Source: a virus. Taken from it: a DNA stretch of 64,000 bases. The DNA lies in the IMG/VR virus record IMGVR_UViG_3300025728_000145, positions 3,944 through 67,943 of that record, one strand, 5' to 3'. The notes beneath the pieces were generated by a model. It had not been told where the DNA came from and ran no database searches. It saw only the letters and a program-made list of their open reading frames with translations. Shown here piece by piece: positions 33,254 through 51,428 of the stretch. Within the stretch, counting starts at the first letter, position 1; every line of letters starts with the position of its first letter. The translations under genes were made by a program, and so were the position numbers.

Positions 33254-35709
33254 TTGTGGGGGAGTATGTTAGGCTAAGGCTATGAAAACTATAAAGAACG
33301 TAATCGCAGGGATCATATCTCTTGTCCTGATTGGACTCGCTGTTGTCATGTGGGTTGTTGCGGCAACCTCAGGAATGTATCCACACATGATCTTCGTGTG
33401 CTGTGCTGTTACTGTCGTAGCCTTGGGGTTGTCGTGGACTGCCTTTCAAGTTGCTAAACTGTAGACAAGATAGAGAAGGAAAAGGAGAAGGTAATGGACA
33501 TCAAAAACAAGATTGAGTATGTGAAGTACTTCTATCAACCATGGGAAGAGCTTCTGTTCCGGTATGTTCTGGTACTGGACCTTGTAGGTGGTAAGGGGCG
33601 GATGGAGTTCGTTTCCCATAACCTTGACGAAGACGAGTTCTTGGAGCGGTGGGATGGTCTGAAAGATGAGCCTACCCTGAATAGGATAGAGTACTGCTCC
33701 TTCGATGGTCCTGATGATTGGAAGGTTTTCTAGATGTATGAACCGATGACAGAGAAAGAAGCTAAGAGGTTTGTTGCTGGAGTCGTGGGGTTCTTTATTG
33801 TAGCTATTACGATTATGTTCGTGGCCGTTTACAATGTGAGCGTTGCGAATAACCAGCCCAAGTATGATCGATGCACGGATGCAGGAGGTGTGGTCATGAA
33901 GGTGATCACCACTGTAGGTGCAGGAGGCAAGCTGGTCTGTGTGGACGAGAAGGCTCTTCTGGATGTTGACTTTGGTGATGGCAAGTGAGGCTAAACCCAA
34001 AGAAGAAGATTCGGAGAGAGGCGGACTGGGACTTGATTGGTCCGGTTGCCTGTCTGGTAATCGTTTCATGTGCATTCTTGGTAATCCTAGGGATTGTGTT
34101 GACTTGAGAAGGATGACAGCAGAGAGGTTAGGATTTTGACTAAGATTCCAGTAGGATTCGAAGTAAATACTCGGTCTGGAGAGCTACCATCAACACCCTA
34201 TGTGAAGCAGGAAGATGGTACGTGGAAGCCGAAGTATGTAAGTGGTAGGCCAACCAGTCCTACTACTCCACCAACAGACTGGGTTGATACATGGGTAACG
34301 ATTACCCCTGAAGCAACCTAAGATTCGGAGAAAATTTTGAAGGAGAATTTGAATGGCAATGAGCAAGGGCGACAAAGCAGTTATTGTTTTGGTGGCTATT
34401 TTGATGACGACGGTGGGTCTGGGGTTACTGTGCATGATGTGGCTATGCGCTATTTCATTGGGCTGGGTTATCGTGAACGTAGTTACTATGGCCTTTACCC
34501 TGCTGACACTGATCGGTCTGTTCTATGGCTGGAAGGTAGTCCTCACTTCTCTGGACTAGGTACAGTTGTTACCAGAGGGTTTGCATTCATCCGGATGTGG
34601 TCCACCCTTATAGGCTGGTCTCCTGCCTATCTGGAGGATGATTGGGAGAAGCCATACTGGCCTGTAAAATATTGTAAGTACACTGCACCGTCTTGGTATG
34701 GGAAGAAGCAGCGGCCTAGGGTTCGGAACTTCTGGAACTCCAAGTTTGATCCATGGTGGTTGTATCCTGTTGAGCATGGTCGGGGTAAGTCCCTTACGGA
34801 TTCTCTGTATGCAGGTGCAGGGTACAATGCCTACTCTGCGCGTAAAAAGTTTATGGGTAGGTTTTTATTTGGATATGACACCATCGGATCTTTTCAAATC
34901 AGCGAACCTAATCGCACGAAAGAAATGTACTCGCGCTGGCTTGCTGAAGATCATGGAAGCTAATAACAAAAGATGTCCAGTGTGTGAGAAGCCGGTGTTC
35001 TTTGCCTTGCACGCTCCGCAGGACAGTACACTACATGCGTGCTCGGATATTGACTGTGTGAATGCACACGGGATTGTAGACTGGGGAATGCCGAAAGAGA
35101 AGGAAAAGATGAAAGACATTGATGAGATTCAGGCTAAGAAGCGTCTGGGTGATGTACTGAACATAAAATATTTGAAAGGGAGCCATGAGCCAGACAATCA
35201 AGATTAGGTTGAAAGGGTACGGCGATAACGCACCAATGCGTGAGGTTGCTGAGATTGAAGTACCGCAAGGGTTTGCTTTGATCCAGTCTATGAAGATTGA
35301 GACTGTTGCGGGTAAGCCTTATCTGCTGGACAGTGTGGACATCAAATTTGATACGAGGCCCGTGGCGTAATGAGTGAGATGACTGAGCAAGAACAGGTAA
35401 AGGTTAGGGTCACTCGTGTTGTGGCGGATGCTGTTTATGATGCAACCTTGTACAACTGGTTTGCCCTAATGATAATAGGTATTCTCTTAGCCTTCAGTGT
35501 ATGGCCGTGGATCATTGGATTAGTGGTCCTGTTGAATTGGTTCTCTGCGGAATACTTCAAGGACAAGGCAGTGAAGAAAGCGGTTGACAAACTAATCTAA
35601 TTCGGTATAATAGAGGCATAGCTCTAGGAACCGTTATTTCTAGTGGTTGACACAGCGGTGATATACTATATGTAGTAGACACCAAGAAGTTCAACTCTAG
35701 GAAGTATCC

Positions 35710-36318
35710 ATGACAGTTTTCAATCCATTCGACCAAGACTCTATGCCGGAACCACCGGAGATCGAGGGTCAACCTGTCTCCCGTTCACCGAGTGCAGGTA
35801 AGACTTCTCCTGCCGAGCAAGGTCTAGAAATCCCTATGGGATGGAAGCCATCCATCATGGAACCAGTTCCGGTGATGCGCTGCACCGGCACCAGCAGTAC
35901 TACCGGAGAGAGATGCAGGAAGTGGTCTCTTCGAGGTACCACCGTCTGCAAGAATCACGGAGCACAGTTCCCCAGCGTACAGGAACATGCTAATGCCGTA
36001 GTAGAGTCTGCAAGGATGAGACTGTTCGGTATGGCTGACGACGCCGTTGAAGTGATGTACGACCTTATCCAAGAGGGTAAGTCAGATCAGATCAGGCTCA
36101 AAGCCGCTGAGAACATCCTGAACCGTGCAGGTATCAAGGATGCCATTGACATCAACGTTGAGGTCTCCCACAACGAGAACCCGTCAGACTCCATCTTGAA
36201 GCAACTCCAGATCATGCGGGAGCGTCAGGAAGCAGCTAAGAAAGAATCCGAACTAATTGATGAAGGAGAACACGATGAAGAGATCATTGATGCCGAAGAG
36301 AAGCCCGAAGAAAGCTAA
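35710..36318 (+). CDS. Putative terminase small subunit (HGGxSTG-like Zn finger plus helical domain)
   Basis: RCTGTSSTTGERCRKWSLRGTTVCKNHGA; SDQIRLKAAENILNRAG; acidic tail; strong TTGACA..TATACT promoter upstream. Confidence 0.55.
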   Translation: MTVFNPFDQDSMPEPPEIEGQPVSRSPSAGKTSPAEQGLEIPMGWKPSIMEPVPVMRCTGTSSTTGERCRKWSLRGTTVCKNHGAQFPSVQEHANAVVESARMRLFGMADDAVEVMYDLIQEGKSDQIRLKAAENILNRAGIKDAIDINVEVSHNENPSDSILKQLQIMRERQEAAKKESELIDEGEHDEEIIDAEEKPEES

Positions 36319-37230
36319 GCTTGATCCGTCCTATGAGAAAGCTTTGCTAGAGTACGTGCGAAAGCACTTCCCTCACATGCTTCTGAACAACCCTCCGGGT
36401 CCACGCAGGAAACGTCCTCCACGGGCAAATTAGCAACAAAACGCGCCTCTCCACGTCGTAAAATATTTCAACACACCGAAAGAGAACCAATGTCAACCCA
36501 CCACCTCTGTGTGAAATGCAACAAAAACTTCGCCGTAATCGGCCAAGACTACTGCCCTGTGCATGGAGGCGTGGTCCCCAAAACAATCAAAGAGTATGAA
36601 GAACTCCGAGACTCCAAGCTGATCACGGGAGCACAGTTTTACACGTCCCCCGGAGTCCCCGCCTTTACAGAGCAGACGGAGTCTGATAGACTATTAAAGT
36701 TGCGGGAGTACATCAGCAATCGACTGTCAGGTCTGTCCATGAATCCTCACTACATCGATCAGTATGACGAGGGATGGGTCACTGGAGTTTCCGACTCTTA
36801 CCGAGAAATCCTACGGATGATCGATTCCATGTACCCCAACCTCTAATCCTATCAGAAAGGCAAGAAAATCGCAAGAGCAAATACCCCACTCAATCCGGAG
36901 CCTGTCTACCGTGCCGTAGTCCTGTGGCATTATCCGGGCATGTACTACCCTCAGTCGGACTGGGAGATCAAGAGCGGATACGCGTCACGCCCACTACCTG
37001 ATGCTCAAACTTATATAGCCTATGATGAATCGGGTAATGAAAGAGAGATAGAGTATCACTCTTATATTTGCCGTGGCCCGTACTCCATGCCGGGACCGGC
37101 TAAGTCTCAGGTTACAGCAGCCGCACAGAGCCGGTGGAGTCCATCACATAATGACTACATAGTCTACGCCGAGGTGGAGGAATCCACAGGAGCTTGGAAC
37201 ACGAAGCCAAAGGGCGTAAAGTAGGTCCAG

Positions 37231-37474
37231 GAGGCTCTACCGGCCAGCAGTGATCCACGGTAGGGCCTCTTCCCCTGAGAACCAAACGGCTGTAGACTTA
37301 GCTTACCAGCATCCCGGAACGAACGGCTGAGATTCTGGAAAAGGGTCTCCCGGTTCACTGCCCCCCAGAGTGCCGGGAGGCCCCTACAACACAACTGAAT
37401 AACCTAGTGGGCACCGAACCTATCCGTAGGCTTGGCGCAAGCAGAAGACCCTCAGCCTAAACTGGGGGTCTTCT
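37231..37474 (+). ncRNA. Non-coding hairpin cluster
   Basis: Stems at 37231-69, 37342-85 and 37443-74; no RBS-led ORF. Confidence 0.4.
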
Positions 37475-37540
37475 CTTTGACGAGATGCCGTGATAAACTT
37501 TTTGAACCGAATCGACACGGTACACAGATAGATCCACAAA

Positions 37541-37572
37541 GAAAGACCCCTAGCGGGAACTAGGGGTCTTTC
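37541..37572. terminator. Bidirectional terminator
   Basis: aaaGAAAGACCCCTAG-cgggaa-CTAGGGGTCTTTCcttt at the 3' end of the minus-strand DGQHR gene. Confidence 0.85.
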
Positions 37573-37580
37573 CTTTGCCG

Positions 37581-39002
37581 TTAGGCTTCTACGCCGGGTG
37601 CCTTGTCAAGGTAGACCAGTTCGTAGAGCGTGGCGTAGAGTCCGGTGACTCCAGCGAAGCCTGCACCGTGAGAGGTCCACGGATTGCCGGGGCGCTTCTC
37701 CCAATCCACCTGACCGAGCTTGGAGACCTTTGCCGCAACTGCGGACCAGAACTCTTCCTCAGTGCGGGACTGCTCCAGAGCGCCAGAGAGGATGTCCTTG
37801 CCGAGCTTGGAGACGGAGCCGACACCAGCGAGGTTCTTGAGTTGGTACTTGACCTTCTCTTCCACCGGGTCTCCACCTTCGATAGGTACGACCAGTCGCG
37901 GACGTTCCTGCCATGCCGGGGCGCATGTACGGGCAACGAGTTCCCAGTACTTCTTGGCCACCTTCTCCAGCTTCAGCCCACGGTGCTCCAGACGGCCCAT
38001 CAACTGCTCAGGGAGCATGTTGCCGACCGAACGGCGCAGACCTTCATAGGATACCGGACGGTCCCGTTCCTGCGGCCCACCAGTCATGTTGACCAGACCG
38101 TACCAAACGGAGTCGCCATCTTCTGCCAGAGAGCGAGCGACCTCACGGACGATCTGTTCGTGTGCGGGGTTGCCCTGCTCCATGTGGACCTTTGTGGCCT
38201 CGATGAGAGCCTTGGGAAGCTTGCGCTGGTTGGTGTTGATGTCATCGAACAGCGTAGCTTCGTCCGTGTAGCGCAGACCGTAGTAGAGCATCACCGGAAC
38301 GTCCGGGTTGAAGTTGGCCTTGTTCTCCCATGCCCAGAACAGACCACCAGTGCGGTGCTGTCCGTCAACGATGGAGACAACGGAGGGGCCGAACTCCTTG
38401 TGGATACCCTTGATGTCTCCCTTGTTGAACAGGTGGTTGAACTTTGCCTTCTCCTTTTCGGAGTAGACGCGAACGGACGCGATGATCGGGGTGATCAAGT
38501 GAGCGTGCGTATGCTGCTCATCGGTCTCCTGAGAGTAGTACCGTCCGATTGCAGGGAAGCGAGCTTCGAGCGGATCGCGCTGATATCCGTTCTGCCGTGG
38601 TGAGGTGGACTGCTCATCCACCGAGTTGTATGTGGAGATGAACGCGAGTTCCTTCAGGGCATCAGGAGTCAGGGTAGCGAGTGCCGCCTTGCCAGCGACA
38701 AACTCCGACTCGATGACCATGCGGCGTTCCTTCTTTGCCTGTGATTCGGCGCGAGTTTCAAACTCCGGTTCCTTCGGCTCTGCGGCCTTACCTTCCGGAT
38801 CGGTTTCTTCCTTGGGGTTGTCCGAGAACATGGGCTTGACATCCGGTGCGGGTGCCGTGACCTTGGGAGCTTCCTCCGTAACTTCTTCGGTGACCGTTGC
38901 AGTTGCGGATTCCGCTGCTGCGATTTGTGCTGCTGCCTTCTCTGCGTTGGCCTTGCGGGTTGCCGCTGCCTTCTGTCCGCGAGTAAGAGTCTGAGTAGCC
39001 AT
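37581..39002 (-). CDS. DGQHR-domain protein (ParB/Srx/DndB superfamily)
   Basis: GYQR..R, SIVDGQHR, EATLFDDINTNQRKLPK motifs; Ala/Lys-rich N-terminal extension (KAAATRKANAEKAAA); GAAAGG RBS. Confidence 0.85.
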   Translation of the reverse strand: MATQTLTRGQKAAATRKANAEKAAAQIAAAESATATVTEEVTEEAPKVTAPAPDVKPMFSDNPKEETDPEGKAAEPKEPEFETRAESQAKKERRMVIESEFVAGKAALATLTPDALKELAFISTYNSVDEQSTSPRQNGYQRDPLEARFPAIGRYYSQETDEQHTHAHLITPIIASVRVYSEKEKAKFNHLFNKGDIKGIHKEFGPSVVSIVDGQHRTGGLFWAWENKANFNPDVPVMLYYGLRYTDEATLFDDINTNQRKLPKALIEATKVHMEQGNPAHEQIVREVARSLAEDGDSVWYGLVNMTGGPQERDRPVSYEGLRRSVGNMLPEQLMGRLEHRGLKLEKVAKKYWELVARTCAPAWQERPRLVVPIEGGDPVEEKVKYQLKNLAGVGSVSKLGKDILSGALEQSRTEEEFWSAVAAKVSKLGQVDWEKRPGNPWTSHGAGFAGVTGLYATLYELVYLDKAPGVEA

Positions 39003-39225
39003 GATAGTGATCCTTTCAATAGTCTATTTGAATGTTGTGTGGTAGCCCCTCCTTTCCGAGGTGGTTTCCATGTCTCAAACATTACGCCTCCTTTTCCAGT
39101 ATGACAAGTTGACTTTGAAAAATATTTTTCCTCTGGTAGGCGATTCCGCGTAATGCCGGGGCTGATCCTCAAAAAACAAGTAGTGCCGGTTTGCAAACTG
39201 AGTACTGCCGGGGTAGGATTGAAGC

Positions 39226-39420
39226 ATGAACCAGACCAAATATGCGGTAGGAGATCCTGTAAAGATCACTGCTGGTACCTATGCGGGTGCCGAAGGTGTC
39301 ATTGCGGATCTACAGCCTGAGTGTGATGCGGTGCGGTTAGAGACTAAAGAAGGCACTGCGTACTCATTCCTAGAGTCCATGGTGCCGCTGCCGAAGCCTA
39401 GGCCACCACGGCGTAAGTGA
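39226..39420 (+). CDS. KOW-motif protein, leaderless
   Basis: YAVGDPVKITAGTYAGAEGVI; TTGCAA..TAGGAT then ATG. Confidence 0.75.
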   Translation: MNQTKYAVGDPVKITAGTYAGAEGVIADLQPECDAVRLETKEGTAYSFLESMVPLPKPRPPRRK

Positions 39421-39579
39421 TGCAGACCACAACTGAATAACATGCGGTAAGGACTGGGGGCTTGCCGTACCGTAGCGTTACTCCCTTAGGAGTGGCGCTA
39501 CTTTCTTTTACCCAGACAACAATGCGGTTATGCAGATGCCGTGCCGATAGTGTTATTGGAGAGGATACATGCTCTAGAT

Positions 39580-39936
39580 ATGAAGGTCTCAATGTTCCGA
39601 GTAGAGAAGGCAAACGGTACGGGGCCGTATGTCCAACAGGAAGATCACCCGATGCTTACACACATGTATGCCGTTCACGGTGATTCCGATCATCCTGAGC
39701 CGTGGGATGATCCACTGCTTGAAACAATTTATCCCGACGAAGTATGCGGCTTCCCTACACTCTGTGCCGTAGAGGAATGGTTTGCCGGATACGAAGACCC
39801 TCTTGCCGAGTGCGGCTACAGCATCGTAGCCTACACGGTACCAATACATTCAGTACGATACGGTAAGCAACAGTCAGTATTCCTTAAGAAGGATGCGGTA
39901 CTTGTGCGGAGAATGCCGATGATAGGTCAGCCATGA
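39580..39936 (+). CDS. Hypothetical protein (FRVE..GPY..HPxP family), paralog of 42078
   Basis: GGAGAGG RBS; motifs shared with 42078..42467. Confidence 0.7.
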   Translation: MKVSMFRVEKANGTGPYVQQEDHPMLTHMYAVHGDSDHPEPWDDPLLETIYPDEVCGFPTLCAVEEWFAGYEDPLAECGYSIVAYTVPIHSVRYGKQQSVFLKKDAVLVRRMPMIGQP

Positions 39937-40023
39937 TAGAACGTCTCCTTGCCGCTCAGGATATGATACGGCTACTGCTAGGCAATGCGGATGCCAGAGA
40001 AGCAGATGCGGTTACCGCTCAGT

Positions 40024-40284
40024 TTGTAAAAGATGCGGTGCCGTGATAGACTGAACACCGTTCGATACACAATGATAAGAAGCCCTCCCGATTACCACTT
40101 GGGTCCTAGACCAGCGGGAGGGCTTTTGTGTGTCTTGACTTAGATGCGGTGCCGTGATAGAATGAGATGTATCAGGTAGGCGCTCTCCTTCCGAGCACCG
40201 AAGACCCTCTCGGCCAACAGTATGCCAGTACTGCGGGAGGGTCTTTCTTTTGCCCTTGACAATGCGGTTCCGTTACCATAGACT
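40024..40284 (+). promoter_or_regulatory. Three tandem sigma-70 promoters separated by terminators
   Basis: TTGTAA-17-TAGACT (40024), TTGACT-17-TAGAAT (40135), TTGACA-17-TAGACT (40256); 20-bp repeat AGATGCGGTGCCGTGATAGA; hairpins 40080-125 and 40201-245 with U-tracts. Confidence 0.8.
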
Positions 40285-40290
40285 AAGTAT

Positions 40291-40452
40291 ATGAACAGAG
40301 TAATCATTACCGCCATGGGTGACGATTCGTCATATGCTATTCTGCTGCTCACGGAGGAAGAGACTGCCGTAGCTCAGAAGATCGTTGACGCTTTCGAGCC
40401 TGACGGAAACTACGCACCGACAATCAAAATCGAAGTGAAGGAGATAAAATGA
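40291..40452 (+). CDS. Small leaderless protein (not in ORF track)
   Basis: ATG 6 nt after TAGACT; MNRVIITAMGDDSSYAILLL... Confidence 0.65.
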   Translation: MNRVIITAMGDDSSYAILLLTEEETAVAQKIVDAFEPDGNYAPTIKIEVKEIK

Positions 40453-41049
40453 TTTATCGAGACAACGACCCCCACACGCTCCGACAGATGCGGTACCGCC
40501 TCATGGACCGCGTTCGTGATCTTCTCCGGGCTTTGCGGGACAAGTAATGGACACCCGGCAAGTGACCCTAGAGAAGACCGAGACCGATGCGGTTGCCGTG
40601 AGGTACGGTAAATGCATCCTAGGTGCCGTAGCTAAGCTGCCGTTCCAAGATCTCTGGGCTGCTTACCATGACGGACGTCTAGTTGCTACGGCCAAGACCG
40701 ACTGGGCTGCGGCTTACGCACTTGCCACATGGTGCGGATACTGATAGTCTAAGGTTTACCAACTACTTAGGAGAGAACATGGAATACGAAAAGGCTTCAG
40801 ACATTCTTCAGAAGATGCATGACCGTACAGTTGCTGACGCTGAGAATAAAGAACAGCGGTTAGCTCAACTCAACGCGGAGTATGCGGCTGGTGACACCAG
40901 TACCGATACGATTGCGGGTATAAAACTTTTTACCTCCCGAGGTGTCAAGCTCCGTGCCGAAGCCGAGGCCCTAAACGTAGCTATCGAAGCCCTGTGGCGG
41001 CTTGAACAGTTGGACAAGTAAAATGTTTGAACGACTTCAGCCGCGAATC

Positions 41050-41083
41050 CAACCTCAACCTCAACCTCAACCTCAACCTCAAC
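41050..41083 (+). repeat. (CAACCT)5 microsatellite
   Basis: Five perfect hexamers plus CAAC just upstream of the GGAGG RBS of the gene starting at 41101. Confidence 0.9.
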
Positions 41084-42077
41084 AACCACAGGAGGAATCA
41101 ATGCGGTACCGAGACGTACTGTTCATAATCTTCTCGATTGCCCTGACCGCGTTCCTTCTGGTCTGTGCCTTCCGAGGTGGTCACATGATCTTTGACAACC
41201 TCGAAGACGACCGTAAGTACAACCAGCGACAGCAGCAAGCCCAAGAATGGGTAGATCACTGCCGACAAATCAAAGACGCGGAAGTATTTTCCGCCTGTAT
41301 TAAGGCGTACCGATGATCCCACTCCCAGACCTCGAACCGGAGACTCTTAAAACTTTTGAAGCTGCGGTAACGGAGTTGTTCCCGGACGCTACCTTCCGGC
41401 ACGTCGAGCAGACCATCATGGGTCCGCCGTACCTCATCATCTGGATACCGGATGAAACGTCAGTCGTCCCGATAACGCTGTGCATCGATGCGGGACAGGG
41501 ATTGCAGGGAGTTGACAAGGATGACCTTCGTGTCGTAGACTTGTAATACCAACCAACACAGGAGGAATCATGGCACAATCAGCGGAACACATTGCGGCGG
41601 ACAAAGATCACAAGCCCGTATGGGAAGGTGACGAAATCTACGATTGCTCAGTATGTGGACTAGCCGTTATGTCAGACGGACGGAACCACGGATTTGATAG
41701 TGACTACGATGTACAGGAGAAGAAGTAATGGCTCGCCGTTCATACGAAACACTCGCCCGTGATCTTGCCAAGGAGAAAGGAATCTCCGTACAGGTAGAAG
41801 TAGACAACGGGCGTGACTTCTCCGTAGAGATCTGGGCGTTCAATGCACATCAAAACTTTGATGATGCTCACACCAACATCCCAAGCATGGAAGGCTACGG
41901 CCTGAAGTCACCGGCTGCGGTGTGGAGGCAGGTCTACGAAGACTTGCAGCAGTACGAAACATGCCCACTGGACTGTCGCTGCTACGAATAAAACTTTTAG
42001 AACGGGTCACCTTGACAGGTGGCTCGTTCTTTTTGTATGCTGGAGCCGTACTGATAAAAACTTACAAGGGGAGAGAT

Positions 42078-42467
42078 TTGAAGACTGTTACTGTATACCG
42101 TGTCGAGCACAAGGAGAAAGGACACGGCCCGTACCTTGACAGGAATGGCATCTTCAGGGGCGTATCCGGACTGCACACAGCACATGAACGATCCCCTCAG
42201 CACCCCGGACCACGACAAGACGGGCTGGGTTGGGATGTTTACGGCAAGTCCTTTGCCTTCCCTGACCGCGAGCGCATGGACTGGTGGTTCAAAGATTTCA
42301 AGCACAAGCTCAACCGTGAAGGATTCGTCGTAAACATTTACGAGGTGGGTGAAGAACACACGACCGTAAGTGAAAGTGGCAAGCAAGTCATCTTCGAAAA
42401 AGATCAAGCCAAGCTGGTTGACACGCAAAGTGTCATAGGGTATAGTAAATATTACCAAACCAACTAG
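42078..42467 (+). CDS. Hypothetical protein, paralog of 39580
   Basis: TTG start; VYRVE..GPY..HPGP..FAF..WWF..GF..KQVIF. Confidence 0.75.
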   Translation: MKTVTVYRVEHKEKGHGPYLDRNGIFRGVSGLHTAHERSPQHPGPRQDGLGWDVYGKSFAFPDRERMDWWFKDFKHKLNREGFVVNIYEVGEEHTTVSESGKQVIFEKDQAKLVDTQSVIGYSKYYQTN

Positions 42468-44441
42468 GAGGAAATCATGGCAAAGGTAATGACCAGCGTA
42501 CAGAACATGTCAGATGCACTGGAGTTCGCAACCAACAGCATGGACGAACGACTGGGTGGCCGAGTGGACGCTGTTGGACACATCGGTAAGTTGCTGACCG
42601 GAGTGTACGACGCTGACCAACTGGACGGCATCCAGAACGAAATCTTCGCAGAAGCTTCGAAAGACTACCGTGAAGGTTACGAAGAAATGTGGAACACCAT
42701 CTACACCAAAGCCGTAGGATTCTAGGAGGAATCATGGAAAAGTCAGAGCCGTTCACCATCACAACGATCATCACTTTCGATGACCAGAACGAACCACAGG
42801 CGGTGACCGTTGAAAACTTTGGTGGAATGCCACGATCAGCCGTAAGGGCAATCTGTGAGGAAGCACTTGACCGACACTTTGGGCGCGGAGCGATTGAATA
42901 CAGCGTCAACACCTCATCGGTTGAGGCATTCGAACAGGCAGATGACTTCGTAGTATTTGAAGTTCGTAAGCTGGTCTAAAAACTTTGAAGGTCCGGACTT
43001 GCATCCGGACCTTTACTGTTATAGACTATTGTTATCAGCCAAACAGGAGGAATCATGGCAACGGTAAAAATCGGAGACATCAGCCGTAACGGTCTGTACC
43101 AGATCACAGACACCAATTGGGACAGCAATGGCACCATGAAGGTTACTGTTCGCGAACTCATCGGAGAGCGGGAGATTCCAAAAGACCGCCTTGAAGCAAT
43201 GCGAAGGTTTGCCCGTCGCGCACTTCCGGAGTACCGTAAAGGTCAGACTCGCGGTGCCCGTACCATTCGAACATGGTATGCAGATGGATGCAGCCGCGCA
43301 ACATTCGCAGTCACCCGTAACGAACGGTAGTTGACAACGGGATGAAAGTCCCATAGACTAAGTACATACCAACCGGAACAAGTCCTAGGAGGACAAAATG
43401 AGCAAGTACACTCACGAAGAGAACCGCATGTCACTTCAAGCGATCACCCTCCAAGCTTTCGAAGCAGGATTGCTGAAAGAGAACCAGCGTCTCTACTACG
43501 ACAAGGGCAACGGTAACTACGCTGTACCTACTCGGATCAAGGTCGAAGAGTTCAACGAAGAGACTCAGAAGTGGGAATACATCAGCCACCCTGCATGGGT
43601 TCCTGAGTTCACCTACAAGGACGGACCAACCGCAGTAGGTAAGGTGCTCACTGGAGTAGCCAACGTCCTCTGGGCCGTCATCATGAACAAGCGCCAAGCA
43701 GAACTGGACGAACTCCGGAAGTAAAAATTTTATGTCGCTCCGCTTGACACCAACAAGCGGGGCGGCATAAGATGGTTACACCAACGAAGTCCACAGGAGG
43801 ACAGCATGAAACTTTTCACAGTCACGATGAGCGTCAACAACAATCTTCTTTCTGTACCCATTAATCAGGTTCAGGGATTTGGAGAACACTCCCCCACCCA
43901 AGGCTTCATCTTTATGGGGACAAAGACGGTGACCACAAAGGAGAGCTATTCGACTCTCGTAGAAATGTGGAACGACTTGACAGGTGAGTCCGAGTAGCTT
44001 AGACTATAGTTACCAACGAAGTCCTAGGAGGACACAATGCGCATCACGCACAAAACCCTGAAAGCACTTCTCGAAGACCTGAAAGCTGTCGAGAACCGCG
44101 AAGGTGACTACCTCGCAGCACTTGACTCAGCGGTAAGCACTGTTGAGGAATGGGTCGAAGTATCCGCACCTGATCCATCCGAGGGGACACGCTACTACTC
44201 GGACGACTTCTTGGACTACGAAGAGTCGAAGCCCTACGGTGATGACACAGCCCGAATCATCGACATTCACGCTGGTGTCATTGCCTACTCACACAAGGGC
44301 AACGCGGCAGACATCTGCCAAGCTCTGGAAGTCAATCCGCTCTCACAGTACAAAGACGAACGGTAAAACTTTTAGGTAGTGGGTTTGCAATCGTAGGCCC
44401 ACTACCTTAGACTAGAACTACCAACCACACAGGAGGACAAA

Positions 44442-44753
44442 ATGTCTGTAGCACTTGAAACCGCAGTATCCATCGACGCAATTGAAGAAGCTCTCGTTGA
44501 AGCGGGAATGTATCCTGAGTACGTCGGAGAAGACGACGGCACGACGTTCACCATCACCTACGGTGACAAGGAGATTCAGATTTTCAACGCAGTCAGCGGT
44601 GACTCGTTTGTAGCCGAAAATCTTTCATCGGCCAGCTACTACTTTGGGATCATCGGCAAGGACGTTACACGGGCTTTTGAGGACGTGGAGACTCTGGAAG
44701 AGTTCATGGCCGCAGTTCGGGACTGCATGGAAGCGAACTTCATGCCACGCTAA
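44442..44753 (+). CDS. Acidic early-region protein
   Basis: Own promoter and RBS; D/E-rich. Confidence 0.8.
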   Translation: MSVALETAVSIDAIEEALVEAGMYPEYVGEDDGTTFTITYGDKEIQIFNAVSGDSFVAENLSSASYYFGIIGKDVTRAFEDVETLEEFMAAVRDCMEANFMPR

Positions 44754-44848
44754 AAGAATTTAAACTATCGGCCCTTGTCAGTTGACAGGGGCCATTAGTT
44801 TGTCATAGACTATAGTTACCAACACAGCAACAGTCCTAGGAGGACAAA

Positions 44849-45496
44849 ATGAGCGGGTTCACAATGGCAGACTTCAACATCACCGTAGATGAAGAGACCG
44901 GCCACCGGGTTGCCAAGTTCGCAGTAGACTCCAACATGCTGCCCGTAGAACAGCCGGACATGTACAGCACCTACAACGGTGACTACTTCACTGAGCGCTA
45001 CCTCGAAAATATGGAAGAGGACGGACAGCCGGGAGACTATGACGCCTACGACTGGAAGTACGATTCCTCCGCAGTGTGCAGGAAACTCAGTGAGGTGGGA
45101 GCACAGGATGTCGTTAATCAGCTTTCGTCGGAGGGAATCATCCGTAGTGTTGAGGTGGAAAGCACATGGTCACCTCGTGAATATAACTTTGCAACGGACA
45201 GCTACAAAGCAGTCTGGGAGTTCGATCTTGATCTTCTGGAAGCATGGGCAAAAGAAAATAGGTTCAACGACTCCGAGTACGTCAAGAAATATCACAGCAG
45301 CTACGACGGATTCATGTCCTATGTAGAAGATTGGATGGAAGATGAGCGGTATGTTGAGGGGTCAACACTTTGGCTCACACTGGCCGCTTACCTCCGGATG
45401 AACCTTGATCTGGTACAGCAAGAGGAATCTATGCGAGAGGTCGAGTATGAAGCATGGGATGAGACCACCACGATCACACTGAAAACAGAAGACTAA
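44849..45496 (+). CDS. Highly acidic, aromatic-rich early-region protein
   Basis: Own promoter and RBS; WSPREYNFATD, HSSYDGFMSY motifs. Confidence 0.85.
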   Translation: MSGFTMADFNITVDEETGHRVAKFAVDSNMLPVEQPDMYSTYNGDYFTERYLENMEEDGQPGDYDAYDWKYDSSAVCRKLSEVGAQDVVNQLSSEGIIRSVEVESTWSPREYNFATDSYKAVWEFDLDLLEAWAKENRFNDSEYVKKYHSSYDGFMSYVEDWMEDERYVEGSTLWLTLAAYLRMNLDLVQQEESMREVEYEAWDETTTITLKTED

Positions 45497-45876
45497 AAAC
45501 TTTTAGAGCGGTCCTTGACAGGGCCGCTCTAACTGTTTTAGACTGTAGTTACCAACAAAGCCTAGGAGGGCAATCATGGAAAAGGAACTTACACTCGAAC
45601 AGGCTCAAGAGTTTGTAAAGACTCGCGACGGCTACGGTTCCACTCGACTTTATGGAATCATTGCGGACGGTGATTTCGCTGGACAGACTGTGGCAATCAA
45701 GTCCACCTATCACCTCGAACGGTACACCTACTCTCGTATCTACACAAAGTCCACAACCATTACCGATATCGTCGGTAAGGCATAGTCACAAAAGTTTTTC
45801 TCTACCGGACTTGCATAGAGTAAGTAAGTCCGGTAGAGTAGGTACTACCAACAAGGAAACGTCCTAGGAGGACAAA

Positions 45877-46287
45877 ATGATTATCACCGGAATCACAGTT
45901 CAGGAACTCATCGACGTAGTAGCAAAGCTCAACGCCGAAAGCTACAACGGCAACATCGTGATTGAGCGGGTAGAAGCACTATCCGCAACGGGTACGCGTA
46001 TCTCAGCAAAGCTGGGAACGAATGACAGCCGTGCTCACGGGTCACGCAGGTCAGCATCAGGCCGTCACGGCAAGTACCTTTGCTGGCACGGTTTCCGCGA
46101 CGTTTACCGCGCTTGCTTTGCGGTCAACCCTGCTGCACGTATCAAGTCCGGTCAGGTCGTCTACCGTGGCGCACAGCACTTCGAGGACACCTACGAGACG
46201 ACGGCGTACCAGAACATCGGGTCGATGGTTTCACCAACTTACATGCCCGAATGCTGCGTAGGAACCTGCAACGGCGACTTCGAATAA
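45877..46287 (+). CDS. Hypothetical early-region protein
   Basis: Own promoter and RBS; CWHG motif and C-terminal Cys cluster. Confidence 0.8.
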   Translation: MIITGITVQELIDVVAKLNAESYNGNIVIERVEALSATGTRISAKLGTNDSRAHGSRRSASGRHGKYLCWHGFRDVYRACFAVNPAARIKSGQVVYRGAQHFEDTYETTAYQNIGSMVSPTYMPECCVGTCNGDFE

Positions 46288-47482
46288 AAACTTTTCGTGG
46301 AGGGGTTGACGAAAGTCCCCCTCCACGATAGACTTTCATTAACAGCACAAACAACCAACAAAGGAGAAACACAATGCTGAAGCTCATTGAAAACGGCTGG
46401 AAGCTCGAACCCATCAACGGCAACTCCGGCGTGTACGTCGCAAGCCGTGGAGATTCCAACATCGTCTACGTCACCAACATTTGGGGCGAACTGGAACGGC
46501 GCTCGCAGAACTTCAAGAATCGCTTCGACGCACGGAATGAAGCGAAAGACATCGCCCGAGAGTTCGCAACACTCTAACCACTTCAAAAGTTTTACGTCTG
46601 GGAGGACACCATGGCTACACCGAAAGTCATCACCGCACTGATCGAAGACCGAGACAACTGGAAGGTAGGGGAAACTCCCTTCAAGGTCGAACTGAAAGGT
46701 CAAGCCGTTCCGGAAATCAAAGCCAAGCGGGTACAGAACTTGGCTACAGGAGCATTGTCGGTACAGATCATTGCACCCGTCACGTTCGCACTCTCGACAC
46801 TGGACAAGATTGCCCAGAACATCCTGACAGGCGCGAAGGTGCGAGAGTACCGAAAGGGTTCGGTCATCGTTCGGGAGTACAGCCGATGAGCTACATTGTA
46901 GTCAGGGCCGCAGAGAACGAGCGGACACGCCAGACCCTCGAACGGTACTTGTACGAAGGTCAGAAGATCGTAGGTGAGCCGGTAAGGTCCGAATTTGATT
47001 CACAATACTTTATCGTGGACACCGGAACGAACGATACCTACCGCAGCCAGTACATCACGGATCGCCTGAACTCAGGGCCGTTCGGTGCGAAGCTGTTCAC
47101 CAGTCTTCCAGAAGCTGAACTCTACATTCAGCGGGAACTCCGATAACTTCAAAAAACTTTTAGCCTAGGGTTGCGCGGTTGCGTTACCCTAGGCTATAGT
47201 TGTTTCAAGAGCAGGAACCGAAACGAAGAAAGGTAAGGCCATGAAAACGACTTGCAGCACAGAAGGACACTACTTCTACCGGACACTGAACACAGTAGCC
47301 CACAAGTGCACTTACTGCGCTGCACGTCGCTGGCCGTGGACACGCGAAAGCGTAGCTTCACTTCGAGCGGTAGCCGTTCTTCGACTGGCCTCAAAGAATC
47401 CAGCTTTTGCAGCAAAGTTGCTCAAAGCAAATTGATAGTGTAAACTGAGAGAGTAATATCCAGTCTAGTGAAAGGAACCGCC

Positions 47483-48130
47483 ATGCTGAAAGCATTAGGA
47501 GTGGCCGCAGTAATTGCGCTCGCAGGAACCACGGCTGCACCAGCCCAAGCTGCTGTGGCACCCGTGACACTGGCACCAGTCGCCGTAGCATCTACCGTAG
47601 CTGTTGAAGCTGCACCGGACGCTGTAGTGACGTTTGAAAGTCCCGAGGTAGAAACTGTCGCTGCACCAGAAGAAGTAACCCCAGTGGTTGCTGAACCTGT
47701 TGTAACCGAACCAGTTACAGAGCCTACAACGGAACCGACACCGGAGCCGGTAACGATCTTGCCAACTCCAGTAGCACCTGTTGAAAATATTTCAACGCCA
47801 ACAGTTGGGGGAACTGTGACAGAAGAAGCAACACCCGAGGTAGTTGAGGAACCGGCAACGGTGCCCGAAACTCCCGCCGAACCACCAGTAATCGAGGAAC
47901 CTGTGGTAACACCCGAAGACACAACCGCAATTGAAATGTTTGAAGGAACGAGCGAAGACTTCAAGCCCGAAGGCGGAACGTACATCGGAACCTACAAGGG
48001 TCCAAAAGATATCTGGACAGGTGAAGGCAAGGTTGCTGTAAAGGGCACCATGACGACCACAGTTGACGGTAATCCCAACAACATGGCCGAAAGTAACATC
48101 CTTTACTTCTGGCACGTCTACACCATCTAA
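47483..48130 (+). CDS. Secreted Pro/Thr/Glu/Val-rich protein
   Basis: Signal peptide ending AQA; low-complexity EPVVTEPVTEPTTEPTPEP linker. Confidence 0.75.
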   Translation: MLKALGVAAVIALAGTTAAPAQAAVAPVTLAPVAVASTVAVEAAPDAVVTFESPEVETVAAPEEVTPVVAEPVVTEPVTEPTTEPTPEPVTILPTPVAPVENISTPTVGGTVTEEATPEVVEEPATVPETPAEPPVIEEPVVTPEDTTAIEMFEGTSEDFKPEGGTYIGTYKGPKDIWTGEGKVAVKGTMTTTVDGNPNNMAESNILYFWHVYTI

Positions 48131-49084
48131 AAGTCATAGTCTAGGACTTGCCTATTGGGGGAGTCCTAGGCTATGCTTGCTCTACAGGCAAGAACAGAAC
48201 AACCTAGGAGTTAGCATGTCTTTCATTATCGAATACTCGTCCATCGAAGACGACGCAGAAGACGGCGGCATGGGTGAGAAGCTGGTCAAGCTGACCGAAC
48301 CGCGTGTGTACGGGTACACGAAGGAGGAACGTGACGCAGTGAAGGCCGGTAAAGCTGGCAAGGGCACACACTTCAAGCTGTACGACGACGACGGCAACTG
48401 CTACTACACTGGCAAATACTTTGGTGACGCTGATTCGGAAGAAGCTTTCGAGCCGCTGGAATGGGGTTACGGGGAAGGGTGCACGCACATCAAGTACCGT
48501 CAGAAAGACGGAACCTACGAAGTTCTGTAGGGGAAAAGATTTTTAGGGGCTGGCCTTGACGGGCTGGCCCCTTTGTCTTAGACTAGAGTTATCACCGACC
48601 CAAGGAGTGAAAGTGAAGGTAGAAATGGTACGGCCCAGAGCAATCAAGGTAGGCGCAACGATCAAGGTTCGCCCGGAGTGCTTCAACCTCACGGGACTGC
48701 CAGAATCGGCGCGTGGAGAGTTGAGGGTGGACGAGTACGGTTCCAACTGGAACGGACGCTACACCTTGGAAGTGTCGAACCGAGAAGGTGACTGCTTCAA
48801 CGTCATGGAGTCCGAGGTAATCGAGATTCGCCCGTAGTAAAAATTTTAGCGGGGTCAGTTGAGAGACTGGCCCCGCCTTATCATTAGGAGTAGAAGTGAA
48901 GACTGCACAGGAACGTAGTGAAATGTTTGATCGGGCACTGGAGCTTACGGCCGTTGACCGGGCCGAGTTGTCGGTTAGAAAATTTTTCAAGGGGGCTTAT
49001 GCACCTCCAGTCGTGGTGCTGGTAAGTTTTGGAGCACTGGGTGCAGTTCAAGGATTCATCCAGCGTACATTCTAGGGGGCCGAG

Positions 49085-49549
49085 GTGGCTGTAACTAAAC
49101 AAGGCATCAAACGGCGCGTAGCGGCCCTGATGGTCGACTTTGGGGTAAAGGGCTACACTGTCCGTGTTGGGCGCTCAAAAGGCGGATCATGGGCGCATTG
49201 TGACTATGTGAAGCGGGAGATAGTCATGAGTTCCAGTCTTTTGAGTTGCGACTGGGTATTTATCAACCAGATTGCCATCCACGAAGTAGCCCATGCTTTC
49301 GTAGGCCCGAAAGTCACGGCTCACGGTAGGGACTGGCTAAAGACTGCCCGATCAATGGGGTACAGGTTGGGCGTAAAGGTGCCTAGGGGCGAACCGATCA
49401 AGGGGGAGCATAAATGGGTAGCCGTGTGTGAGACAGGGCTTCACAGCGCTATCAGATTCGAAAAGAAAGCAGAAGACGGCGTGTTGCTATGTCGTCCGTG
49501 CTGGGATAGTGGGTCAGGAGAAGTCAGGGTGTTCTGGGACAGGCTCTAA
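49085..49549 (+). CDS. SprT-like zinc metalloprotease domain protein
   Basis: WAHC..IHEVAHAFVG....HGRDW; C-terminal C/H/CxxC. Confidence 0.8.
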   Translation: MAVTKQGIKRRVAALMVDFGVKGYTVRVGRSKGGSWAHCDYVKREIVMSSSLLSCDWVFINQIAIHEVAHAFVGPKVTAHGRDWLKTARSMGYRLGVKVPRGEPIKGEHKWVAVCETGLHSAIRFEKKAEDGVLLCRPCWDSGSGEVRVFWDRL

Positions 49550-49623
49550 GGGGCCTAGGAGCGCCTATAACGGCGAGCGCTAGTGATTGAGCCTTGAAAG
49601 AATTTAAGGCCGTTAGAAACGAA

Positions 49624-49654
49624 AATAGCCCCCACCTGATGGTGAGGGCTATTT
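49624..49654. terminator. Bidirectional terminator at convergence of the cassette arrays
   Basis: AAATAGCCC-ccacctgatggtga-GGGCTATTT between convergent genes. Confidence 0.75.
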
Positions 49655-49662
49655 GCTTTGGT

Positions 49663-51428
49663 CTAGAGTTCATCCTGCTGAAATGTCCAGTATCCTAGTG
49701 ACTTACCTGAATCGTCACGATTCTTGATCTTGGTCCATCCCCTGTCGTCAAGCTGGTCTACTGAATCTTGACCGCCGAGACGAAGCACCCGTTCGTATGC
49801 TTCATTGTTCTGCATGTCGGCCATGCGGCGCTTAGCGAGTTCCGCGTATTCACCGTTGATTGCCGGAGTGTAGAAGAGCTTCATTTCAGTTCCTTTGTTC
49901 GTTGTTCCTGCTGATAAAACAAGACTACGGCCTAACTCTCGTGGAGTCAAGCCGTAGTCTAAGAAAGTTTTTGATTAGTTGGTGGAGAGGATCTGGATTA
50001 CGAGAGTGTCTGAGGTGAGGCCGGTCTTGAAGCCACGGACGAAGTTGGTGTTAGCTGCGGCGACCATTGCAGCACCGTCGTAAGCGAGAGACAGGAACTT
50101 GAGGTATTCGTTGGTCTCGGTAACGTCATCGAGGTCTACAACGAAGATATCGTTAGCCTTGAGTTCGCCAACAGTGGTGAAGTGGACCTGAGCGGAGTTT
50201 GCAGACATTTTCGGTTCCTTTAGTTGTTTCTTGCTGATGTAGATAGTCTATGGGGTGTTTGGGCAAAAGTAAAGCCCTACCGGAGTAGGGCTTCAAAGTT
50301 TTTACAGGGTTTCAAAATCTTCCGAGTCAAGCTCGAACGGGTGAGTTCCGCCATTCACTGTGTAGTCCGACTGTCCGGACCTATCCGTCTGGCTGTAGCG
50401 CTCGCAGTCTCCAACTTCAAGGATAAGGGGGTAGGTTCCGTATGTGTCTACGTGAGATTCGATTGTTTCATAGGCCGTGACGTCATAGCCTGCAACAGTG
50501 ACGACAGAACCAGACTTGACGACATCAATGTACCCGTTTTCATCTTCAACTTCAAGGTCAATCATGAGCTTGATCTGTGAGCCAATGGCTGGGATGTTCA
50601 GGGATTCCATGTTTTCATTCCTTTGTTCGTTGCTGATGTATCTAGTCTAAGGTCTTTGTTGGCGGGTGTCAAGCTGGGATGAAAAGTTTTTGAGCAAAAG
50701 AAAAGGCCCCGTAGGGCCTATCCTTAGTTGTTCGGGAATCGGGAGTCAAATTCTTCATCTGGAAGAATGGTCCACACGGGTTCAGCTTCCCGGCACTCTG
50801 TGCAGTAGGTTGTGGGGCCGTCGTCTGCACCGTAGCTGAAAACGTCGTGTTCGCCAGTTTCCGTGCAGATGGAGCCGGTACGGTCCTTAGTTGCGAAGTG
50901 TGCCATTTTCTTTCCTTTGTTTGTTCCTGCTGTTGATACAAGTCTAGGGCATAGCCGCGTGGATTGCAACCATGCCCTAGAAAAGTTTTTTGATTAGTCG
51001 TTTTCAGTCTGGCACTGCGGGTAGCTCCACATGTTCCATTCGGAGCCGTGATCGTGTGCGAAATACTCTGCGGAGCACTCATCGATGATCCCAGTGGCGT
51101 GTGCTACCTCATGGAGCAGGATGTGAGCGCCCTCAGGGGTGTTGTAGACCTGCGGTGAGACAATCACAGCAGTGTATCCCTCAACAGTAAGGAACGTGCA
51201 GCCACCGCCCGTACCAGTGGGGCTGATCTTAGAGCCACAGTTCTGATCCTCAGTGAAGAACAGGCGAGTGTTGGCAGGGAGTGACAGGCCAGCCTTGTCA
51301 AGGACACCCTGTTCCCAGCTAACTACCTGAGTGACAGGTGAAGGAGCAGGAGTCTCAACCTCAGCAACCTGAGAGGGGAAGAGGCCAGCAAAGATAGAGA
51401 CGATGAGGGCGAAGATTGAGGCGTACAT
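49663..51428 (-). other. Five minus-strand monocistronic genes, each with its own promoter
   Basis: ORFs with lower coordinates 49663, 49975, 50302, 50724 and 50994; each preceded by AAAACTTT..TTG/TTT-17-TAGACT/TAGTCT and an AAC..AAAGGA leader. Confidence 0.85.
50994..51428 (-). CDS. Secreted/membrane HEXXH metallopeptidase-like protein
   Basis: N-terminal hydrophobic signal; ILLHEVAHATGIIDECSAEYFA. Confidence 0.7.
   Translation of the reverse strand: MYASIFALIVSIFAGLFPSQVAEVETPAPSPVTQVVSWEQGVLDKAGLSLPANTRLFFTEDQNCGSKISPTGTGGGCTFLTVEGYTAVIVSPQVYNTPEGAHILLHEVAHATGIIDECSAEYFAHDHGSEWNMWSYPQCQTEND

Follow-up and report, generated by a model that had tools for sequence, protein, structure and literature searches.

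Two promoter-to-terminator units, candidate short early RNAs, in a soil phage related to Arthrobacter phages Racecar and Atuin

Introduction

The OOP RNA of phage lambda is a short antisense RNA of about 70-80 nt with a promoter of its own and an intrinsic terminator at its end. In enterobacteria, DapZ and MicL are small RNAs derived from 3' UTRs and made from a promoter that lies within the gene upstream. SPO1 and T5 carry host-takeover modules in their terminal repeats, in which many small genes lie behind strong host-type promoters, together with terminators; we know of no ORF-less RNA units described in these modules. To our knowledge, the small RNAs of lytic actinobacterial phages are almost unexplored, and a literature search on small RNAs in actinobacteriophages and in host-takeover regions returned nothing on this clade. 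Two further systems are of interest for the arrangement of promoters and terminators. For lambda PR'-tR' and StxS, a short by-product RNA is described as able to take on a regulatory function (PMC7547250), and TerR of plasmid pLS20 is reported to have a 15-bp stem, to resist antitermination and to stand at an operon end (PMC10325885).

The locus considered here lies in a window of 64 kb, which is the whole stretch of DNA analysed and part of a 67.9-kb viral contig from a soil phage (completeness estimate 39%); all positions are those of the window. It holds two units, 1 and 2, each with a predicted promoter (P1, P2) and a terminator hairpin (T1, T2), and a third promoter (P3) follows them.

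As in OOP, the units would measure about 70-80 nt from their own promoter to an intrinsic terminator, but they are antisense to no gene and show no complementarity above chance in the window. As in DapZ and MicL, the promoter of unit 1 and of the corresponding units in the relatives L006 and L007 lies in the last codons of a gene, and the terminator of the operon is shared; the difference is that these units belong to a phage of Actinobacteria and that the RNA body is not conserved. The likeness to SPO1 and T5 consists of small genes, host-type promoters and terminators in a long direct terminal repeat, which is here deduced from Racecar. A promoter followed by an intrinsic terminator ahead of phage genes recalls PR'-tR' and StxS (PMC7547250). 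However, a full-consensus promoter, P3, follows the terminators of the units, no Q-like factor or pause signal was seen, and the units are in the early region, not in the late one. Finally, the stems of T1 (16 bp) and T2 (19 bp), also at an operon end, are at least as long as the 15 bp given for TerR (PMC10325885), although this phage has many long stems (22 terminator-like hairpins picked by hand from the window range over 9-22 bp, with T1 and T2 in the upper part). From their sequence, the units would be short promoter-to-terminator phage RNAs, a known class, and appear confined to a small subclade.

Results and discussion

Genomic setting

The window is, judging by sequence comparison, a fragment from a relative of the ~194-kb Arthrobacter phages Racecar and Atuin. 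The reverse-strand gene at 37581-39002 encodes a protein of 473 aa with a match to DndB (Pfam, E = 3.4e-10), which is 55-62% identical to its counterparts in four ~194-kb Arthrobacter phages (annotated as 'ParB-like nuclease domain' in Racecar, Mimi and Talia1610 and as hypothetical in Atuin) and 72% identical to the product of a gene at the end of G001, a 174-kb viral contig. It is called DndB/ParB-like below.

Racecar has a direct terminal repeat of 20,468 bp, whose first 8000 nt were compared between both ends and are identical, and the window is colinear with the right unique part of Racecar and then with this repeat. By analogy with this relative, the window would enter the terminal repeat near 35.7 kb, and the units would lie about 4.3 kb further in. 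By the same colinearity, the stretch ~35700-51500 is probably the collapsed terminal repeat; it has the look of an early region, with small genes that each have a TTGACA-17-TAGACT promoter and a block of reverse-strand genes (49663-51428) at its end. An earlier note on this DNA had called the units early, and their presumed position in a terminal repeat dense in the same promoters fits this description.

Immediately around the units, two small ORFs deserve attention (Table 1). The final codons of the conserved 37-aa ORF (ending in FVKDAVP and the stop codon) hold the -35 and the spacer of P1, and a homologous small ORF lies 3' of the neighbour gene in L006-L010, L015-L017 and L020. On the other side, the stop codon of the 53-aa ORF coincides in part with the start of the ORF that follows at 40449, and L007 has a different small ORF in the matching leaderless position.

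Table 1. Positions in the window of the two units, their parts and the surrounding features
Feature	Position	Strand	Description
37-aa ORF	39933-40046	+	conserved; start overlaps the stop of the phrog_1106 gene
P1	40024-40052	+	TTGTAA (40024-29), 17-nt spacer, TGnTAGACT (TAGACT 40047-52), TG-extended -10
Repeat copy 1	40031-40054	+	AGATGCGGTGCCGTGATAGA..; two TGCSG pentamers inside
Unit 1 RNA (predicted)	40059-40128	+	~70 nt; start placed at ~+7 from the -10
T1 terminator hairpin	40078-40127	+	13-bp outer stem, internal loop, 4-bp inner stem, 3-nt loop
P2	40135-40163	+	TTGACT (40135-40), 17-nt spacer, TGnTAGAAT (TAGAAT 40158-63), TG-extended -10
Repeat copy 2	40142-40165	+	copy at P2
Unit 2 RNA (predicted)	40170-40251	+	~82 nt; fold; L007 orthologue
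Conserved 5' segment of unit 2	40169-40180	+	GTATCAGGTAGG; candidate seed
Anti-Shine-Dalgarno-like site	40183-40192	+	CTCTCCTTCC; loop of a weak 5' hairpin in unit 2
T2 terminator hairpin and U-run	40200-40251	+	13-bp outer stem, 5-nt bulge, 6-bp inner stem, 4-nt loop
P3	40256-40284	+	TTGACA, 17-nt spacer, TAGACT; 12/12 against the phage consensus
53-aa ORF	40291-40452	+	leaderless type; ATG exactly 7 nt past the P3 -10
37231 hairpin	37229-37272	+	T2-like
U0 (third, degenerate unit)	37477-37575	+	repeat with a 6-nt gap, TGATAAACT as TG-extended -10, ~45 nt
TGCGG/TGCCG array	37000-41650	+	75 pentamers; both promoters embedded

Promoters

P1, P2 and P3 follow each other in tandem on the + strand, at distances of 111 bp and then 121 bp. 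The earlier note had seen two near-consensus promoters with a common 20-bp repeat, and this description holds: P1 and P2 each match 10 of the 12 positions of the phage's own consensus (TTGACA-17/18-TAGACT), and their common repeat is 24 nt long with 96% identity, 20 nt of it being exact. As far as the sequence allows it to be said, both have the layout of sigma-70/SigA-type promoters, with hexamers at 16-18 nt spacing and the optional TG. A generic promoter scan reports P2 and P3 without P1. In the whole window, the scan with the phage consensus gave 35 promoter sites, 27 on the + strand and 8 on the - strand, and the looser pattern TTGACN-N18-TAGANT with up to one mismatch was found at 20 sites versus 4.35 +/- 1.98 in shuffles.

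A short leader bearing ACCAAC, AGGAGG and a start codon comes after most of the consensus promoters. At three of them there is instead an ATG exactly 7 nt past the -10 (40291, 52550 and 62149), from which the likely transcription start was set at +7. The + strand ORFs that begin at these three positions have no ribosome-binding site and are probably read from leaderless mRNAs, which are common in Actinobacteria. Among the 35 predicted promoters, only P1, P2 and that of U0 reach a terminator without either a ribosome-binding site and start codon or a leaderless ATG, as judged by eye.

Predicted RNAs and terminators

From both P1 and P2 a hairpin with a U-run is reached after ~20-30 nt, and the predicted RNAs of ~70 and ~82 nt agree with the length of about 70-80 nt given in the earlier note. 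Unit 1 folds with -27.3 kcal/mol (z = -4.1) and unit 2 with -34.9 kcal/mol (z = -3.7), and none of 200 shuffles folded as well in either case. T1 (-26.3 kcal/mol) begins 32 nt past the stop codon of the 37-aa ORF, and its stem is followed by UUUU and then GUGUGU, which makes a short U-run; the U-run of T2 is UCUUUCUUUU, and the three G-U pairs of T2 are consistent with an RNA of the + strand. Both hairpins look like intrinsic terminators, with a G+C-rich stem, a short loop (3 and 4 nt) and the U-run directly after the stem. They are absent from the list of a generic terminator scan that accepts only loops of 3-8 nt. The large loops reported earlier are present, but part of them is structured by the inner stems. 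The combination CCCTCNCG-N12-30-CGGGAGGG occurs only at units 1 and 2 (3 matches when both strands are counted) versus 0 expected.

Unit 1 doubles as 3' UTR of the operon that precedes it and has the layout of a 3'-UTR-derived small RNA: its promoter lies within the final part of the preceding gene, and its terminator also serves the mRNA. The bodies of units 1 and 2 showed no relatedness when compared. The body of U0, whose terminator is common to the convergent DndB/ParB-like gene, is marginally similar to that of unit 1 (p = 0.02). The resemblance between the stem-loop junction of unit 2 and that of the 37231 hairpin, which had been pointed out before, was found again: CGGCCAACAGT and CGGCCAGCAGT agree at 10 of 11 positions, and this hairpin is also a match to the covariance model described below.

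A CCGAG/CUCGG helix rivalling T2, spotted by eye as a possible attenuator, has no counterpart in L007 and was dropped. At four other places of the + strand (41999-42030, 44763-44800, 45498-45537 and 48545-48572) terminator and promoter are fused, the -35 TTGACA of the next promoter lying in the loop or the 3' arm of the preceding terminator hairpin.

Comparison with relatives

The alignment of the phrog_1106 protein led to 21 metagenome loci, of which 20 are informative and one ends too early. The embedded promoter is present in only three of the 20, which are the closest ones (L006, L007 and L008, with 77%, 75% and 66% protein identity of the neighbour gene), and in all three it sits within the last codons of the 37-aa ORF (FVKDAVP and stop). 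The terminator is seen in two of them, L006 and L007, while the contig of L008 stops 20 nt past the -10. The other 17 loci have an ordinary promoter with a protein gene, or another arrangement, as judged by eye.

In L006, L007 and L008, the promoter block is the longest exact match to the window. The exact runs are 49 and 44 nt in L007 (the next being 28), 50 nt in L006 (the next being 33) and 34 nt in L008, followed there by the P2 copy with 20 and then by 17. By this sequence measure, nothing else in the neighbourhood is as well conserved as the promoter block, whichever of the three close relatives is compared. The -10 lies just past the stop codon of the 37-aa ORF, outside the ORF, and across P1, P2, L006-L008 and U0 only its positions 3 and 5 vary (TAGACT, TAGAAT and TAAACT). 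Variation limited to the two least critical positions would be expected of a -10 under selection, on the basis of few sequences.

L007 has a single unit, which combines the upstream context of P1 with the body of unit 2. The first 22 transcribed nt of unit 2 are identical in L007 (22/22), with the flanking genes at 74-89% identity, and the middle of the unit falls to 38%. The inner stem of T2, CAGTA/TACTG, reads CAATG/CATTG in L007, which amounts to two compensatory pairs, and both stems are kept. The segment GTATCAGGTAGG is exact in L007 and appears as GTATCAAGTAGG in L006, which keeps GUAUCAAGUAGG and ends with an ordinary tetraloop terminator. The anti-Shine-Dalgarno-like site that the earlier note had described in unit 2 is indeed there, but the loop is replaced by CTCCCGTGAGG in L007. 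P3 is identical in L007 at 26 of 29 positions.

We tentatively read the units, at slightly below an even chance, as genes for short non-coding RNAs of the early phase that arose where a gene slot had been emptied, with terminators that double as a shield for the leaderless operon behind them. Their place would be the presumed terminal repeat, an early region, of a phage that is lytic and akin to the Arthrobacter phages with long direct terminal repeats. The main RNA polymerase of the host would start at the TG-extended P1 and P2 and stop about 70 and 82 nt further on, at terminators with a long hairpin and a U-run, so that two short RNAs would result. Unit 1 would be of the 3'-UTR type, with its promoter inside the end of the 37-aa ORF and with T1 also closing that operon, whereas unit 2 would stand alone. 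By comparison with the relatives, the promoter descends from that of a variable gene slot, in which this subclade lost the gene and only a short RNA would remain. T1 and T2 together would bar upstream transcription from P3, whose first gene would depend on an RNA that begins right at the ATG. Less firmly, RNAs of the unit 2 type could act in trans through their conserved unpaired 5' end, GUAUCAGGUAGG, on host or phage RNA outside the window; unit 1 may be a mere by-product.

Several observations speak for this reading of the units as short RNAs. Both promoters and both hairpins exist and exceed what chance would give, the longest exact match to each of the three relatives falls on the promoter block, the first 22 nt of unit 2 are perfect in L007, the G-U pairs of T2 suit an RNA of the + strand, coding frames are not conserved, and the location is in the presumed terminal repeat, dense in the same promoters. 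Against it count the presence of the embedded promoter in only 3 of the 20 informative relatives, and of the terminator in two of these, the unrelated bodies of the two units, the anti-Shine-Dalgarno loop that is not kept, and complementarity at the level of shuffles. Moreover, the units are not found in G001, Racecar or Atuin, and the 44-nt identity with L007 could stem from recent exchange and not from constraint. What the earlier note had proposed as small RNAs is sound in anatomy and favoured by the conserved 5' 22 nt and the compensatory hairpin in L007, and it is weakened by absence from 17 of 20 relatives and from these three phages.

The same comparison feeds the main rival explanation, which seems to us unlikely though it has to be taken seriously: the units could be empty cassettes, remnants of a slot after gene loss, and any short RNAs made from them would be functionless. 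The promoter would then have been kept as coding sequence of the 37-aa ORF or for its pentamer or iteron sites, and the hairpins only to protect P3. Distant relatives do have an ordinary promoter with a protein gene here, and for the genes found next in L009, G001 and L015 the 67.9-kb record contains no homologue. The number of units varies as well (one in L007, two in the window), their bodies are unrelated, and outer stems of the type AAGACCCTC../..GAGGGTCTTTC recur as plain terminators, for example in Atuin. Contigs of near relatives from soil runs (X2 and X3) align up to ~39884-39905 and resume at ~40490-40516, with nothing between; as this gap falls within 39884-40516, the units and the first P3 gene would have been replaced in those relatives, which fits a variable spot. 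Another ORF-less unit, a promoter with a hairpin and a U-run, was observed in Racecar (gap 26047-26257 of the locus L027, at about 190.2-190.4 kb of the Racecar record), and its presence in the Racecar repeat suggests that such remnants arise readily. What functionless remnants explain less well is that, outside the coding part, L007 matches the first 22 transcribed nt perfectly and L006 retains some of the motif, that the -10 is conserved outside the ORF, and that the repeat copy of P2 is non-coding and yet identical.

Lambda Q engages at the promoter spacer and the initial transcribed region, and the conserved stretch of the units lies in the same places. The units could then be antitermination leaders in the style of lambda PR'-tR', which would fire constantly and stop immediately until, later in infection, a phage factor takes hold of the polymerase in the conserved spacer or the first transcribed part and lets it read through T1 and T2 into the genes behind. 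A promoter and an immediate terminator ahead of an operon match this anatomy, and the unusual conservation covers the spacer and the first 22 nt. We regard this explanation as improbable all the same. P3, with 12/12, stands directly 3' of T2 and would make the operon independent of read-through, and the first gene of P3, of leaderless type, would go untranslated from a read-through RNA. Furthermore, no clear -10-like pause element was seen by eye in the initial transcribed region, and no antiterminator was identified. Published work weighs on both sides: a by-product RNA of such a kind, StxS, is described (PMC7547250), and long stems are reported as antitermination-resistant (PMC10325885).

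Concerning environmental reads, contigs of four runs (the X8 metatranscriptome and three DNA runs) were available. None of them spans 40006-40339, which bears neither way on expression, and the near-identical contigs of X8 are limited to 38275-38425 and 38761-38908.

Searches for homologues, targets and peptides

Rfam gave no match in the whole window at gathering thresholds and, with E up to 5, two weak unrelated matches, neither of them on the units; a tRNA/tmRNA search returned nothing relevant. Near and distant DNA searches of phage records matched the neighbouring gene alone, scans of viral contigs with two DNA patterns and the neighbour protein returned nothing, and the search of G001 with 39900-40300 had a best E of 0.39. 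A covariance model was trained on unit 2, L007 and L006, and L012 was left out of its search. The model search across relatives, as had been suggested in the earlier note, brought up only terminator-type hairpins outside the training rows and nothing in G001. T1 scored 19.7 bits and the 37231 hairpin 16.7 bits (E = 0.008), and the best outside match, in Atuin, is a plain bidirectional terminator.

An antisense role, also suggested before, found no support within the 64-kb window: the longest run of exact complementarity is 12 nt, where shuffles typically have 10-12, and the strand opposite the units holds no convincing gene, only a 70-aa GTG frame, so that the units do not qualify as cis-antisense RNAs. 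With up to two mismatches, GTATCARGTAGG has 10 matches versus 7.2 expected.

The units had been described as free of ORFs. This is correct in that there is no ribosome-binding site and no conserved frame, but frames of 23 aa (ATG at 40072) and 30 aa (ATG at 40167; 40167-40259) are open. A small protein gene was rejected, as ribosome-binding sites are lacking and the frames are not conserved in relatives. That these two frames give tiny peptides is highly improbable, even though leaderless genes occur in the phage: neither ATG has the +7 distance to the -10, and the frames cross the terminators. All that the L007 frame keeps is MYQVGA, a consequence of the identical nucleotides; past this point it differs and contains indels. 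In L006 the ATG is missing.

Other candidate elements

Another conserved non-coding element was observed upstream of the convergent DndB/ParB-like gene, at 37300-37395 of the + strand, and also in L004 (1706-1805), L011, L012, L018, L019, L021 and L024. It consists of a -10-like site, then a GCGAACGGC motif and then a long hairpin with CCCCC in the loop, a C-rich loop that recalls 6C RNA. Rfam gave no match to it. In an alignment of eight sequences, 4 of the 11 predicted pairs show compensatory changes. As a small-RNA candidate, this element is better conserved in sequence than units 1 and 2.

At the spot equivalent to U0, ~60-110 nt before the end of the DndB/ParB-like gene, L018, L019 and L021 have a common terminator, GAAAGGCCCCG-AAACCYTTGCAGATTC-CGGGGCCTTTC, with a conserved 16-nt loop. 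In G001, TGATATGAT precedes this terminator, and there may be another short unit at that place. In the intergenic gaps of the terminal repeat within L027 (Racecar 164178-194177), a TTACAAAAnTTGAATAG-like motif lies 5' of most promoters.

The TGCSG pentamer array

P1 and P2 are embedded in an array of the pentamers TGCGG and TGCCG, which are the top enriched 5-mers between 37.0 and 41.65 kb (each 12.4-fold). The + strand of this stretch has 38 TGCGG and 37 TGCCG, and the reverse complements occur twice each. This strand bias runs across the reverse-strand DndB/ParB-like gene and is therefore not a property of a transcript. The same strand-specific array was found in the same place, beside the DndB/ParB-like gene, in Racecar (L004, 1-6000), in Atuin (L005, 1-6000) and at the end of G001 (L002). 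In these three relatives it stands where the terminal repeat starts, with its peak in Racecar lying 2.5-5 kb into the repeat. By these sequence comparisons, the repeat of P1 and P2 is part of a clade-wide conserved, strand-specific TGCSG array.

In addition, the iteron-like 11-mer ATGCGGTNCCG has five exact copies, all on the + strand (40033, 40144, 40262, 40488 and 41101, within 40033-41111), and nine matches with up to one mismatch versus 2.44 expected. Its variants ATGCGGTTACCG and ATGCGGTTGCCG are at 40006 and 40587, and the same 11-mer clusters 3' of the phrog_1106 gene in L007, L009 and G001. A pentamer lies in the spacer of four of the five promoters of the zone (p about 0.03), of which P1 and P2 are not independent. 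Candidate roles of the array are Chi-like end protection, binding of the DndB/ParB-like protein, a replication origin or the control of early promoters.

The array raises the question of whether the units are DNA-level elements, with TGCSG or ATGCGGTnCCG as binding sites for an origin, a partition-like function or end protection, and with the promoter likeness or the short transcripts serving as primers or in origin activation. The five exact copies in one orientation, the 75 pentamers on one strand, the conservation of the array in Racecar, Atuin and G001 and the pentamer in most spacers would all suit such sites. Nevertheless, transcription explains the hairpins with U-runs and the conserved -10 more simply, and a length of 4.6 kb goes far beyond what an origin needs, for which reasons we give this explanation little credence.

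A wider explanation, which strikes us as rather improbable, is that a control zone not described before lies at the entering genome end and has the units as its outputs. It would be made of the 4.6-kb array and the ATGCGGTnCCG repeats beside the DndB/ParB-like gene, and would be conserved in phages of Actinobacteria with long terminal repeats. A factor reading the array would set the activity of the promoters that carry the repeat in their spacer, and the short RNAs would be fast-evolving early regulators or origin primers or activators.

Meaning of the units

If the RNAs are expressed, the units would be a case of a phage turning an emptied gene slot into a short RNA gene, with a promoter that appears to be under stronger constraint than the neighbouring proteins. 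The units also draw attention to the strand-specific motif array, conserved near the end of the genome, and this array around them is a less expected result than the units themselves.
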